A stretch of 64,000 nucleotides of DNA, taken from the NCBI GenBank assembly GCA_023474215.1, contig JAMCYI010000016.1:8265-72264 (forward strand), given 5' to 3'. Shown in pieces: positions 55,528-57,885 of the stretch; the stretch's first letter is position 1; the number at the start of each line of letters is the position of its first letter. This DNA is from Patescibacteria group bacterium. GTDB taxonomy: Bacteria; Patescibacteriota; Minisyncoccia; UBA6257; GWB1-50-10. Under the pieces are notes generated by a model that saw only the letters and a program-made list of their open reading frames with translations, searched no databases and had not been told where the DNA came from. The position numbers and the translations under genes are program-made.

Positions 55528-55534
55528 AGTACGG

Positions 55535-55632
55535 TTAATTTACAATTTCTAATTTTCAATTTTCATTGAATTTCCAATTTGAAAATTTTTAAACGTTTGA
55601 ACATTGATTGTAAATTGCAAAATTGAAAATTC
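55535..55632. repeat. gene-less AT-rich inverted-repeat element (both arms of the 4HB-cassette IR family) between wzm and wzt
   Basis: taatttacaatttctaattttcaatttt ... ttgtaaattgcaaaattgaaaatt; arms match the IRs flanking 56471-56818. Confidence 0.6.
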
Positions 55633-55636
55633 GCCC

Positions 55637-56392
55637 TCATACTTTCTCCGCAAGCTCGCGCTTCTTCGCCTCGAAGATCTTTATGCCGACAAAGCATGCA
55701 AGAGCCCCCATACCGAGGATGACGCCGAACATCCAAAGCGGCGGAAACGTCCGGTCGATGAGAAGACTGCGTGAAATGCTCACAAAATAGAAAACTGGAT
55801 TGAAAAGGTTCACGGTGTGGAGCATCGTCCCCGGTTCGATGGTATAAAAGACCGGCGTCACGAAGAAAAGGAGCTGGCTTGCGATCATCCAAATATTATC
55901 CAAGTCAGTCGTGTAAACGCCGACGGCGGCACAAAAGAACCCCGCGCCGAGAATAAAGGGGAAGAAAACAAGGAATGAAAGCGGATACAGGAGAATGCCG
56001 AGAACAGGAACGCCGAAGTAGATCATGAACGCCGCAACGAGCGCGATCTCGAAGATGTGCGAGAAGACCGACTCCAAGATTGTCGCAAGAACGAACGTTT
56101 CGAGGGAAATATTGTTGATGGACCTGATAAACCCCGCGTTCATGTTGATCGCTTGGATGGACGTTGTAATGCTCTGCCGGAAAAAATTGAAACCGGTAAT
56201 GCCGATCAAAAGGTAAATCGGGTACGATGGAGCTGACGTCCCGGGAAACGCCGCACCTTTCACGAAGAGGATGATAAAAAAAAGCGCGAGGGGGCCCAAT
56301 AGATACCACATGATACCCAAATAACTTCCTTCGTTCCGCAATTTAAAACTCGTCTTCGCGAGCGAAAAACTCAACCGTAAGATATCCTTCAT
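55637..56392 (-). CDS. ABC-2 type polysaccharide exporter permease (Wzm-like)
   Basis: 251 aa, 6 TM, ABC-2 family pattern. Confidence 0.75.
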   Translation of the reverse strand: MKDILRLSFSLAKTSFKLRNEGSYLGIMWYLLGPLALFFIILFVKGAAFPGTSAPSYPIYLLIGITGFNFFRQSITTSIQAINMNAGFIRSINNISLETFVLATILESVFSHIFEIALVAAFMIYFGVPVLGILLYPLSFLVFFPFILGAGFFCAAVGVYTTDLDNIWMIASQLLFFVTPVFYTIEPGTMLHTVNLFNPVFYFVSISRSLLIDRTFPPLWMFGVILGMGALACFVGIKIFEAKKRELAEKV

Positions 56393-56470
56393 CTCCCTTA
56401 TTATAAAGGTTCTAATTTACAATTTTCAATTTACAATTTTCAGTGAATTCACAAACAACAATTTCCAAAC

Positions 56471-56818
56471 TCACCTAACGGACGACGTTATCTTCTGAAA
56501 AATCAGTGTTAGCTCTTGTGCCTCTTTCCATAAAATACTCAATTCGTCTTTTCTGTCTGCGAAACATTCACCCATCATTCGAAGCCAGTGTTTCGTTTCT
56601 TGAGTTTCCTTTTTGCAAATATGGATCTTATTTCGGAAGTCGTTCCTTGAACTCGCGCCATTCGCCTCTTGATAATTAGCACCAATGCTCGTTGCCGATC
56701 TCACAAGTTGATCAATGAGTGATCTTGAAATAGCGTCTTGTCTTAAAGTCTTACAAAACTTTATAACCTCCCCGCCAAACTTTGCGGTACGTTCCTCAAG
56801 GTCGTATATCCTCCTCAT
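56471..56818 (-). CDS. four-helix-bundle protein (TIGR02436 / 23S rRNA IVS protein / Avd family), copy 1
   Basis: YDLEERTAKFGGEVIKF...DQLVRSATSIGANYQEANGASSRNDFRNKIHICKKETQETKHWL family signature; flanked by inverted AT-rich arms 56405-56447 / 56823-56878. Confidence 0.75.
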   Translation of the reverse strand: MRRIYDLEERTAKFGGEVIKFCKTLRQDAISRSLIDQLVRSATSIGANYQEANGASSRNDFRNKIHICKKETQETKHWLRMMGECFADRKDELSILWKEAQELTLIFQKITSSVR

Positions 56819-56882
56819 TGAAAATTAAAACCAATTGAAAATTGGTTGAAAATTGCAAAATTGTAAATTGAAAATTTCCCCT

Positions 56883-57353
56883 CTATTGGAGCGTCATCGT
56901 CCCCTGCATCGTGCCGCTCTTCGGGCAGTACTGAATGCAATGGAAGGTATAATCTCCTGCTGTCTTTCCGGTCGTATCGAATCCGAACGCCTGCGTTTCA
57001 CCCTTCTTCACGACGACGTCGAAGCCGATTTTGGGATCGGCGAAGCCGAGGTCGTACGTTCCGTCAACCGCGGTAAAATTGATCATCAAAACCTTGCCGA
57101 CCGGCACCGTAAAAGTGTCGGGAATGAACTTGCCGTTCTCGGCCCGGATATTGACGACTGAAAAATGATCCTGCGCGACGGCAACTGCTACAACGTCGGC
57201 CGTCGAAGTTGACGTGGCATTCGACGTGTAATTCGGATTTTGAGCTTTCTTGGCGCCGTTGAATATCCAAATACCGATCAAAACGATCACGATCACCCCC
57301 AGGGCAATCCATTTAACTACTGCACTACCCTTCTGTTTCTCCATTGGTTTCAT
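56883..57353 (-). CDS. membrane-anchored cupredoxin-like protein (DYTFHC motif paralog)
   Basis: 156 aa; TM, T/S linker, C-terminus GDYTFHCIQYCPKSGTMQGTMTLQ similar to the giant-protein C-terminal domain. Confidence 0.5.
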   Translation of the reverse strand: MKPMEKQKGSAVVKWIALGVIVIVLIGIWIFNGAKKAQNPNYTSNATSTSTADVVAVAVAQDHFSVVNIRAENGKFIPDTFTVPVGKVLMINFTAVDGTYDLGFADPKIGFDVVVKKGETQAFGFDTTGKTAGDYTFHCIQYCPKSGTMQGTMTLQ

Positions 57354-57521
57354 TGTACCATATTGGCCTTTCTTTTATTATAGCAAATGAACCTTAATTT
57401 TTAATTTGAAATTTGAAATTTTTAATCAGTATCCCAATGAATAAGGTTTAAGATCAAATGCTCTGCTTAGCGCTGGAGGCAATTTTGGAGAAAATCAGCG
57501 TCAATTCATGACTTTCTTTAT

Positions 57522-57812
57522 TCAATTCCTTACATCCACCGGCACTCCCTCGACAGCATTCTCTAAAAGTCTTAGCCAGTATTCTGCCTCCTTGGCCTCT
57601 TTTTTACAGATATGTATCTTGTTGATAAAGTCCTTTCGAGAGCTCGCCCCGTTCGCCTCCCGATAATTCGCCCCAACGCTCGTCCCGGCTCTCAAAAGTT
57701 GAGAAAGTATCGGGAACATAAGTGCATCCTTCCGATATCCCCTAACGAGCTTAACAAGACCCTCGGAGAATTGGGCAGTTCGTTCCTCTAAATCATAACC
57801 AGTTTTAGCCAT
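57522..57812 (-). CDS. four-helix-bundle protein (TIGR02436 / Avd family), copy 2
   Basis: GYDLEERTAQFSEGLVKL...SQLLRAGTSVGANYREANGASSRKDFINKIHICKKEAKEAEYWL; flanked by inverted arms 57395-57433 / 57833-57882. Confidence 0.75.
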   Translation of the reverse strand: MAKTGYDLEERTAQFSEGLVKLVRGYRKDALMFPILSQLLRAGTSVGANYREANGASSRKDFINKIHICKKEAKEAEYWLRLLENAVEGVPVDVRN

Positions 57813-57885
57813 TTAAAATTCGACAACTAAAATTTGATTAAAAATTAAAAATTTCGAATTTCAAATTGATTTCTAGCTCCGCTAG

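Follow-up and report, generated by a model that had tools for sequence, protein, structure and literature searches.

Intervening sequences (IVSs) of 23S rRNA genes that carry a conserved open reading frame (ORF) between terminal inverted repeats were recognised long ago and have been suspected of mobility (PMC4990558). The Coxiella IVS possesses a 28-bp terminal stem and an S23p ORF devoid of a usable Shine-Dalgarno (SD) sequence; three to four GACAGAT heptamers directly precede the S23p start, and RNase III cuts the stem at the first repeat (PMC4990558). Here, we analyzed a 64,000-nt stretch of DNA from a Patescibacteria group bacterium (contig JAMCYI010000016.1, positions 8,265 to 72,264; hereafter, the window), where two genes of the same four-helix-bundle protein family (S23p / 23S_rRNA_IVP) are each enclosed by inverted arrays of heptamers between protein-coding genes. 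These units are probably IVS-type selfish cassettes located outside rRNA, as an earlier note made from the letters of this DNA had proposed. The proposal is supported by the presence or absence of cassettes in a close relative and by the parts found in the Coxiella IVS, while the RNA processing and the route of mobility are what we infer. The label "IVS-type" is apt because the Coxiella IVS has the same parts.

The second group of described elements comparable with this locus is the bacterial heptanucleotide repeat arrays, to which the cyanobacterial STRR (short tandemly repeated repetitive) sequences belong. TAACTGA repeats occur in Beggiatoaceae, cyanobacteria and Bacteroidetes, and "no mechanism is evident" according to their authors, who noted that heptamer arrays typically end just upstream of start codons and proposed translational regulation (PMC4679880). 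The GGGAATC repeats of Xanthomonas (70-75 convergent pairs, with four units commonest) and the GGGGATT repeats of Nostoc are intergenic as well (PMC4692102). The function of the conserved IVS ORF and the origin and function of heptamer arrays are two puzzles, both decades old. At this locus and in 96 related loci from several phyla, the two features appear as parts of one unit far outside rRNA, thus making both puzzles experimentally testable.

Cassette 1 (466 bp, 56414-56879, minus strand) comprises a start-proximal heptamer arm, an intact four-helix-bundle gene and a stop-proximal heptamer arm, and lies between a cupredoxin-like gene and wzm; its boundaries were set by the homology of the host flanks with those of the relative, locus L094. 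Cassette 2 (472 bp, 57396-57867, minus strand) bears arms around a frameshifted gene of the same family, between the relic 3′ end of a large surface-protein gene and the cupredoxin-like gene. The earlier note described both TIGR02436-type genes as bracketed by AT-rich, reverse-complementary arms, and the strings it quoted were found where it had placed them. In cassette 1, positions 56421-56440 pair with 56857-56876 (20 nt, 100% complementary; extended version 56400-56429 / 56846-56875), and in cassette 2, 57403-57426 pair with 57844-57867 (24 nt, 96%; extended to 33 nt at 85%, 57396-57428 / 57835-57867). Complementarity was thus confirmed, but the arms turned out to be not merely AT-rich: in both cassettes they are inverted period-7 arrays of about 4-5 heptanucleotide units (AATTTNC; AATTTAC/AATTTTC..., TTTGAAA...). 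The earlier note did not recognise this periodicity, nor that gene 2 is frameshifted, nor that the cassettes extend beyond this genome.

In gene orientation, the start-proximal arm of cassette 1 (56846-56879, minus strand) reads AAATTTTCAATTTACAATTTTGCAATTTTCAA and is followed by a small local palindrome and then by the ATG, without an SD sequence; the same motif is found upstream of homologues across the Candidate Phyla Radiation (CPR). The corresponding arm of cassette 2 (57835-57867, minus strand) reads AATTTGAAATTCGAAATTTTTAATTTTTAATCA. The stop-proximal arms occupy 56414-56445 and 57396-57428 (both assigned to the minus strand), with AATTTACAATTTTCAATTTACAATTTTCAG as the period-7 run on the plus strand in the former and AATTTTTAATTTGAAATTTGAAATTTTTAATCA on the plus strand in the latter. 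The 12-mer AATTTWCAATTT (at most one mismatch) occurs 16 times in the window vs. 1.97 expected, a number reached by no shuffle. The flank inverted-repeat score, i.e., the best local alignment of the 150 nt upstream with the reverse complement of the 150 nt downstream, equals 40 and 43 for the two window cassettes vs. approximately 17 ± 2-3 for shuffled flanks. Folding of the full cassette RNAs, a check suggested in the earlier note, gave the terminal stems in both the minimum free energy and the centroid structures of each cassette.

The outer ends of the stop-proximal arms resemble −35 hexamers. In cassette 1, TTGAAA lies 18 nt upstream of the host TATAAT before wzm (56429 to 56400 on the minus strand, an 11/12 consensus match), and in cassette 2, TTAAAA lies 16 nt upstream of the host TATAAT before the cupredoxin-like gene (57404 to 57377 on the minus strand, 10/12 with a TG). 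These are the best promoter-like matches of the region, as judged by consensus only, in a scan that gave 9 sites vs. 4.4 ± 2.3 expected. As to the concern that the arms might be promoters and terminators lacking complementarity, the arms pair, and the hexamers at their ends are consensus matches only. The scan for terminator-like sites (a G+C-rich stem plus a T run) found none inside any arm, so that arms as intrinsic terminators were rejected. A leaderless-mRNA promoter in the start-proximal arm (TACAAT-N9-ATG) is seen in some cassettes and, by eye, not in G-type arms, and was rejected as a general feature.

The assignment of the proteins to the family was correct. Gene 1 (56471-56818, minus strand; 115 aa) is intact and matches PF05635 with E = 2.4e-16 (60.3 bits) and TIGR02436 with 79 bits; gene 2 (57454-57812, minus strand) matches them with E = 4.1e-15 (56.3 bits) and 70.7 bits, all above the curated cut-offs (33.8 bits for PF05635 and 24 bits for TIGR02436). 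The AlphaFold2 (AF2) model of gene 1 (pLDDT 94.3) comprises helices 7-23, 29-53, 58-85 and 87-113, and the closest solved structures in a Foldseek search are 2RLD (TM 0.81) and 2GSC (TM 0.84), both of the S23 family; phmmer of gene 1 vs. 2RLD gave E = 4.7e-12. Each of these structures contains five chains (A-E), and the Xanthomonas S23p is a homopentamer (PMC4990558); by analogy, the window protein is probably pentameric. The family protein is net basic and under purifying selection, as the differences at codon positions 1/2/3 amount to 0.31/0.23/0.57, and 76/86 copies are intact. The second gene, taken earlier as the 96-aa ORF 57522-57812, is indeed a family member with arms, but that ORF is not the whole gene. 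It spans helices 1-3, and the last helix (..ELNKESHELTLIFSKIASSAKQSI) is encoded in another frame at 57457-57558, with a stop codon at 57454-57456; the TIGR02436 match is limited to profile positions 3-77 of 109. The original stop is thereby 25 nt away from the arm, like in intact cassettes.

Between wzm and wzt, a gene-less derivative (97 bp, 55536-55632, minus strand) fills the spacer of 109 nt. Positions 55536-55577 share 86% identity with the stop-proximal end of cassette 1 (56413-54), and positions 55583-55631 share 80% with the start-proximal end (56821-69). The claim of a gene-less element with both arms thus stood as regards the homology, while the hairpin proved weak; what identifies the element is its homology to the cassette ends and not its folding. 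Gene-less elements of 100-125 nt with the same arms are present in five other genomes.

Direct evidence that these elements come and go was provided by the close relative, contig VFSW01005658.1 (locus L094), which is colinear with the window in three blocks and about 80% identical (94% for Wzm vs. its orthologue). Between the large surface-protein gene and the cupredoxin-like gene, the aligned blocks are separated by 1 nt in L094, where the cupredoxin-like orthologue directly follows the large gene, vs. 1,454 nt in the window; this window block contains a gene resembling the transposases associated with repetitive extragenic palindromes (REPs), termed RAYTs, with its palindromes, the relic 3′ end of the large gene and cassette 2. 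The slot of cassette 1 in L094 is a 146-nt spacer holding an unrelated gene-less GTAATAC-heptamer hairpin with a strong fold (z = −5.4), and a further heptamer hairpin (AACTCAA/AGTTCAA) occupies the L094 spacer between wzm and wzt. Since the host flanks beside the elements (..TTTATAAT.. and ..TATAATAAA..) are conserved in the window and L094, the same slots have different occupants. The comparison shows the gain or loss of cassette DNA between relatives. Proteins 81-82% identical to that of gene 1 are found in different neighbourhoods, e.g., behind a HepT toxin or in front of a 1058-aa protein.

To place the window cassettes among their kin, one genome per species was scanned, which yielded 80 loci from many CPR lineages (Paceibacteria/Parcubacteria, Saccharibacteria, Moranbacteria, Berkelbacteria, CPR2, Peregrinibacteria and others) with proteins 59-81% identical to that of gene 1. 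The results clearly supported the idea of a cassette family: the median flank inverted-repeat score was 40 for the four-helix-bundle genes vs. 16 for other genes of the same 80 loci, and 79% of the homologues scored 30 or more vs. 3% of the other genes (Mann-Whitney p = 1e-31). A typical CPR cassette has 468 bp and arms of 37 nt at 83% complementarity, starting 11 nt ahead of the start codon and 10 nt past the stop codon. CPR lineages have a conserved arm sequence, which upstream reads AATTTTCAATTTACAATTTTGCAATCAAT-N4-CA-ATG with no purine-rich ribosome-binding site; downstream of the stop, the complement of the arm is often followed within a few bases by the start of the next gene. The cassettes fill the spacer from the stop codon to the next gene. 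Arm matches are better within a cassette than between cassettes (37 vs. 29; 0/2000 permutations). Enrichment is confined to period 7 (18.9% of flank bases vs. 0.68% elsewhere), and the gene is oriented sense to co-directional flanking genes in 47/49 cases (p = 4e-12).

Several CPR loci deserve mention as such. In the Parcubacteria loci L061 (60-800), L065 (75-815) and L071 (310-1050), the cassette is preceded by a duplicated 5′ fragment, about 90 nt long, of the downstream wzt-like ATPase gene (MNNDIAISVKNVSKTFKIPHEK...), which is itself preceded by another arm; the cassettes of L055 and L082 and the gene-less element of the window are also directly upstream of wzt-like genes. The Paceibacterota contig L011 (567-3342) carries two intact four-helix-bundle genes and two fragments within 3 kb, a tandem accumulation. 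At L050 (957-1373), a small gene, presumably of the GxxExxY / PD-(D/E)XK type as its sequence resembles these, is bracketed by an inverted repeat of GCTGATT-like units, hence heptamer-armed cassettes may carry other cargo.

The same architecture was met beyond CPR. A translated search of plasmids gave 28 records, of which 16 loci were analyzed, belonging to Cyanobacteriota, Chloroflexota, Bacillota, Spirochaetota and Bacteroidota (Nostoc, Anabaena, Dolichospermum, Aulosira, Planktothrix, Euhalothece, Pseudanabaena, Chlorohelix of Chloroflexota, Monoglobus of Bacillota, Treponema of Spirochaetota, Bernardetia and Chondrinema). Clear inverted heptamer arrays surround about 13/16 of these genes, several of them perfect and with quite different sequences; the weak cases are the two Bacteroidota loci (Bernardetia, Chondrinema) and Pseudanabaena (L103). 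The arm units include (CAATTCG)x4 with 33/34 positions complementary, (TAATTCG)x4 with 36/36 and 31/31, and (AAATTCA)x4-5, and further GGTCGGA, CAAGTCG, AATCCCC/AATCGTA, GGATGAA, AATTAGG, GGAAAGT, and ACTGGTC repeated 13 times on one side. Period-7 runs occupy 24.9% of flank bases vs. 1.5% of the rest, and periods 5, 6, 8, 9 and 10 gave essentially nothing; the modal arm has 4 units, many having 4.4-4.7. Sampling of CPR and of plasmids, the latter adding four phyla, thus found the inverted-heptamer architecture repeatedly around genes of this family. Defence and transport operons are interrupted here as well: cas2|cas1 in L096 and L104, csx2|cas1 in L103, the adaptor|permease pair of a resistance-nodulation-division (RND) pump in L100, helicase|methylase in L097, L101 and L107, and hsdS|hsdR in L110, where the gene is unannotated. 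On the Nostoc punctiforme plasmid pNPUN01 (L106), two heptamer-armed four-helix-bundle genes (2983-3438 and 5849-6271) flank a module of xisH, xisI, a hypothetical gene and a tyrosine recombinase gene, and the same module stands beside single copies on other Nostocales plasmids (L108 and L109).

A published array also adjoins a gene of this family. The start of XCC0516 in Xanthomonas campestris is overlapped by a GGGAATC array situated 6 nt from bccP (PMC4692102, supplement), and XCC0516 is the protein crystallised as PDB 2GSC. Just as the cassette arms, the published arrays are intergenic, have a 7-nt unit with about four units commonest, often end just before a start codon, and show a patchy phylogenetic spread suggesting horizontal transfer (PMC4679880, PMC4692102). 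They differ in having been treated as free-standing elements (G-quadruplex-forming or translational), whereas the cassette arrays form an inverted pair around one gene family. The main texts of PMC4679880 and PMC4692102 make no mention of IVS or four-helix-bundle proteins, and neither "S23" nor "four helix" is present in the supplement of the latter. The full-text literature yielded no link of the protein family to heptamer repeats and no description of the CPR cassettes; subscription journals are thinly covered there, so an earlier report may exist.

Comparison with the S23p-type IVSs (those of Leptospira, Coxiella, Brucella and Haemophilus) revealed common features in the protein family, in the long stem that the terminal inverted repeats form around the ORF, in size (428-444 nt in Coxiella vs. 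a median of 468 bp for the cassettes; stems of 28 bp vs. 20-45), in the heptamers right upstream of the start, in the lack of a usable SD sequence, in the sense orientation to the host transcript and in the decay-prone ORFs. The differences are that IVSs are located in helix 9, 25 or 45 of 23S rRNA, whereas the cassettes lie between protein-coding genes (55.5-57.9 kb in the window); that the Coxiella ORF is thought to be unexpressed, whereas the cassette protein is under clear purifying selection; and that RNase III excision has been shown for IVSs and is proposed for the cassettes. The location in rRNA that defines IVSs proper is what the cassettes lack, and they match IVSs in every other feature that could be tested.

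The suggestion that the 23S gene might carry an IVS with the same arms was not borne out for the 5′ part of the gene present in the window (model positions 1-648, at 1-980, minus strand). A 281-nt insertion near model position 228 (about 480-760) has its own terminal complementary ends (GGGTCATCTATCTCACAAATCTCACCGATTTGG ... CCAAATTCGGCGATATTTGTGAGGTAGATGACTT), which differ from the cassette arms, lacks a four-helix-bundle ORF and lies outside the classical IVS sites. Neither 16S nor 5′ 23S sequence adjoins the cassettes in any of the CPR loci (0/80), and a classical IVS in the rRNA of the window was therefore rejected. The 16S gene (10810-12277, minus strand) and the 23S gene (1-980, minus strand) are about 10 kb apart, with protein-coding genes and two tRNA genes (Thr, 3664-3736; Trp, 1898-1969) between them, so the rRNA genes are unlinked.

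Taken together, the data allow us to propose how such a cassette may work. Each unit is about 470 bp long, with an SD-less S23p/IVP-family gene between two inverted arrays of some 4-5 heptamers, and makes up the whole spacer of a co-directional operon in the sense orientation. The orientation bias suggests that the operon transcript reads through the cassette, whereupon the arms are predicted to pair into an A/U-rich stem of 20-45 bp. By analogy with the 23S IVSs, this stem is a probable substrate of RNase III, whose cuts would free the four-helix-bundle mRNA and separate the flanking cistrons; the window holds no RNase III gene, the rest of the genome being outside that scope. The outer end of the stop-proximal arm, together with the host −10 box, would form a promoter-like site that, judging by consensus, could keep the downstream host gene expressed. 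More speculatively, the basic, probably pentameric protein may bind the heptamer arrays with about one unit per subunit; binding of this kind would give a constant 7-nt period with free sequence and typically 4-5 units. Copies also decay in place, as seen in the frameshift of gene 2 and in the solo element between wzm and wzt, which was left by internal loss of the gene.

Several observations weigh against reading the units as selfish, RNA-processed cassettes. Arm mismatches display no G.U-compatible excess over A.C on the sense strand (95 vs. 103), hence the arm complementarity is not demonstrably selected at the level of sense RNA, though this count speaks neither for the RNA model nor decisively against it. 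Taken as an RNA by itself, the gene-less element is no more stably folded than shuffled sequences (z = −1.0 to −1.25). Some cyanobacterial plasmids carry the gene antisense to the genes beside it (cas2/cas1), so that read-through is not universal. No mobility enzyme was identified for the cassettes, the identical copy did not turn up at another insertion site (the contigs with an identical protein represent the same locus, at 98.4-100% identity), and no target-site duplication was found at the L094 junctions, where the divergence of the relative (about 80% identity) could blur short duplications. The non-CPR sample is small, consisting of 16 plasmid loci and two literature cases. The lack of G.U bias and the antisense cyanobacterial copies leave a serious rival in a DNA-level element with terminal inverted repeats (TIRs), akin to a miniature inverted-repeat transposable element (MITE) or a small non-autonomous transposon, the arms of which would serve as TIRs or single-stranded DNA hairpins for an enzyme acting in trans, with the protein as a passenger or accessory and the RNA pairing as incidental. 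Candidate enzymes are the Y1 (IS200/RAYT-like) transposases common in these genomes, and a RAYT-like gene (58039-58809) adjoins cassette 2; Y1_Tnp genes lie near related cassettes. The strand-symmetric complementarity, the presence/absence polymorphism vs. L094, the breaks of assemblies around these repeats, and the likeness to MITEs and REP/REPIN-RAYT systems (short, multi-copy, intergenic and bounded by terminal inverted repeats, with gene-less, MITE-like derivatives) all fit such an element. Yet the RAYT has its own unrelated palindromes (CTTACGAAGTTGGACTTCGTAAG): those flanking it (CTTACGAAGTNNNACTTCGTAAG) exist in three copies, all at the RAYT gene, and do not resemble the heptamer arms, so that the RAYT was rejected as the mobiliser. 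Unlike MITEs, the cassette has a conserved non-transposase gene, whose strong conservation argues that it is not a mere passenger, and period-7 arms in place of a unique TIR; the missing target-site duplication does not speak for a transposon, either. The 96% sense orientation would be unexpected for a DNA transposon unless selection is strong. The heptamer sequence varies by lineage while the 7-nt period is kept, which is better explained by a structural or protein ruler than by a sequence-specific transposase. On balance, we regard a DNA-level TIR element as unlikely.

Likewise a serious rival, and somewhat more unlikely still, is a resident regulatory module, where the arrays would act as operators, UP/−35 or translation-initiation elements and the protein as a binding factor that punctuates operon expression, the inverted symmetry arising because both gene boundaries need the same site. 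The arms do lie within about 10 nt of start and stop codons, downstream genes begin right after an arm, the best promoter-like matches join a −35 of the stop-proximal arm to a host TATAAT, gene-less heptamer hairpins fill co-directional spacers elsewhere in the window, and arrays in other bacteria usually end just before start codons, with the translational role mentioned above (PMC4679880). Nevertheless, the close relative L094 is without a cassette at either site, which means that the host genes can dispense with it; copies degenerate through frameshifts and fragmentation; and the promoter scan gave consensus matches only (9 vs. 4.4 ± 2.3 expected). Near-identical arms and proteins in unrelated contexts of distant lineages point to spread and not to local regulation. 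It is most improbable that the genes are orphan Avd genes left from diversity-generating retroelements (DGRs), for which the related fold and the fact that PF05635 also matches Avd-like DGR proteins (PMC10053308) could be adduced. Avd is a distantly related four-helix bundle, likewise pentameric, basic and nucleic-acid-binding, that partners with retroelement RNA (PMC10053308). The Avd structure 4DWL is more distant from gene 1 (TM 0.71, sequence identity about 9-11%) than the non-DGR structures 2RLD and 2GSC, the closest ones. Unlike at DGRs, there is neither a reverse transcriptase nor a template/variable repeat pair at the cassettes: a crude reverse transcriptase motif pattern had no match in the window or in the scanned CPR loci, the precomputed Pfam hits of neighbouring genes include no RVT, and the window's direct repeats of 50 nt or longer come only from paralogous genes and the TAAATCC hairpins. 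No heptamer arrays accompany avd of phage BPP-1, the prototype (best period-7 score 9/21, flank inverted-repeat score 22, both at background). A DGR was thus excluded for this locus, in agreement with the earlier note.

Returning to the IVS-type cassettes, a wider generalization may be put forward, tentatively and with rather less than even confidence. TIGR02436 proteins may be the dedicated partner of bacterial heptamer arrays (STRR, TAACTGA, GGGAATC and similar ones), a ring that reads about 4-5 heptamers, one per subunit. Together with inverted arrays, they would constitute one ancient pan-bacterial class of selfish hairpin cassettes, with the ORF-bearing 23S IVSs as its rRNA special case and many orphan arrays as gene-less remains. 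The cassettes split operons (wzm/wzt, cas2/cas1, hsdS/hsdR, RND pump genes), and the −35-like hexamers in the stop-proximal arms, being consensus matches only, might rewire downstream promoters. Cassette-type repeats may also fragment CPR metagenome assemblies, since many related contigs are short and this locus is broken in assemblies at the REP palindromes next to it. All this is relevant to annotators and to researchers of CPR gene expression. As to carriage by phages, no relative was found in IMG/VR with the patterns used, and 50,697 phage records gave 2 weak hits only.

The host genes of the locus are arranged as follows. All genes from 57812 down to 54781 are on the minus strand. The cupredoxin-like membrane protein gene (56883-57353, minus strand; PF13473, E = 2.3e-8) lies between the two cassettes, the wzm-like ABC-2 permease gene (55637-56392, minus strand; PF01061) between cassette 1 and the gene-less element, and the wzt-like ABC transporter ATPase gene (54781-55527, minus strand; PF00005, E = 1.7e-20) downstream of the latter. 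No Rfam family matched in the cassette region. Directly upstream of cassette 2, the relic copy of the 3′ end of the large surface-protein gene (57882-57975, minus strand; ending in ...GVGFNANF and a stop codon, cf. 58825-58900) has its stop codon in a small 9-bp hairpin (ATTTCTAGC GGA GCTAGAAAT). The RAYT-like Y1 (IS200-like) transposase gene (plus strand), which is directly beside cassette 2, is absent from L094; its palindrome is present as flanking copies and one internal copy (58011-58033, 58214-58236 and 58788-58810), and contigs of other assemblies end exactly at these palindromes.

Further heptamer elements of the window belong to other sequence families. Two gene-less hairpins of about 145 nt (18995-19140 and 22352-22498), built of TAAATCC units and 70-74% alike, represent a second heptamer family; they fill spacers of co-directional minus-strand genes and fold strongly (z = −7.7 and −4.4). 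An AGTATAC-type hairpin is located at 6185-6280, a small AATTT palindrome at 12873-12900, and two short period-7 runs at 3853-3880 and 16075-16104. Finally, the region 49214-53380 contains four tandem paralogous glycosyltransferase-8-like genes, a repeat family with 60-95% identity over 300 nt.

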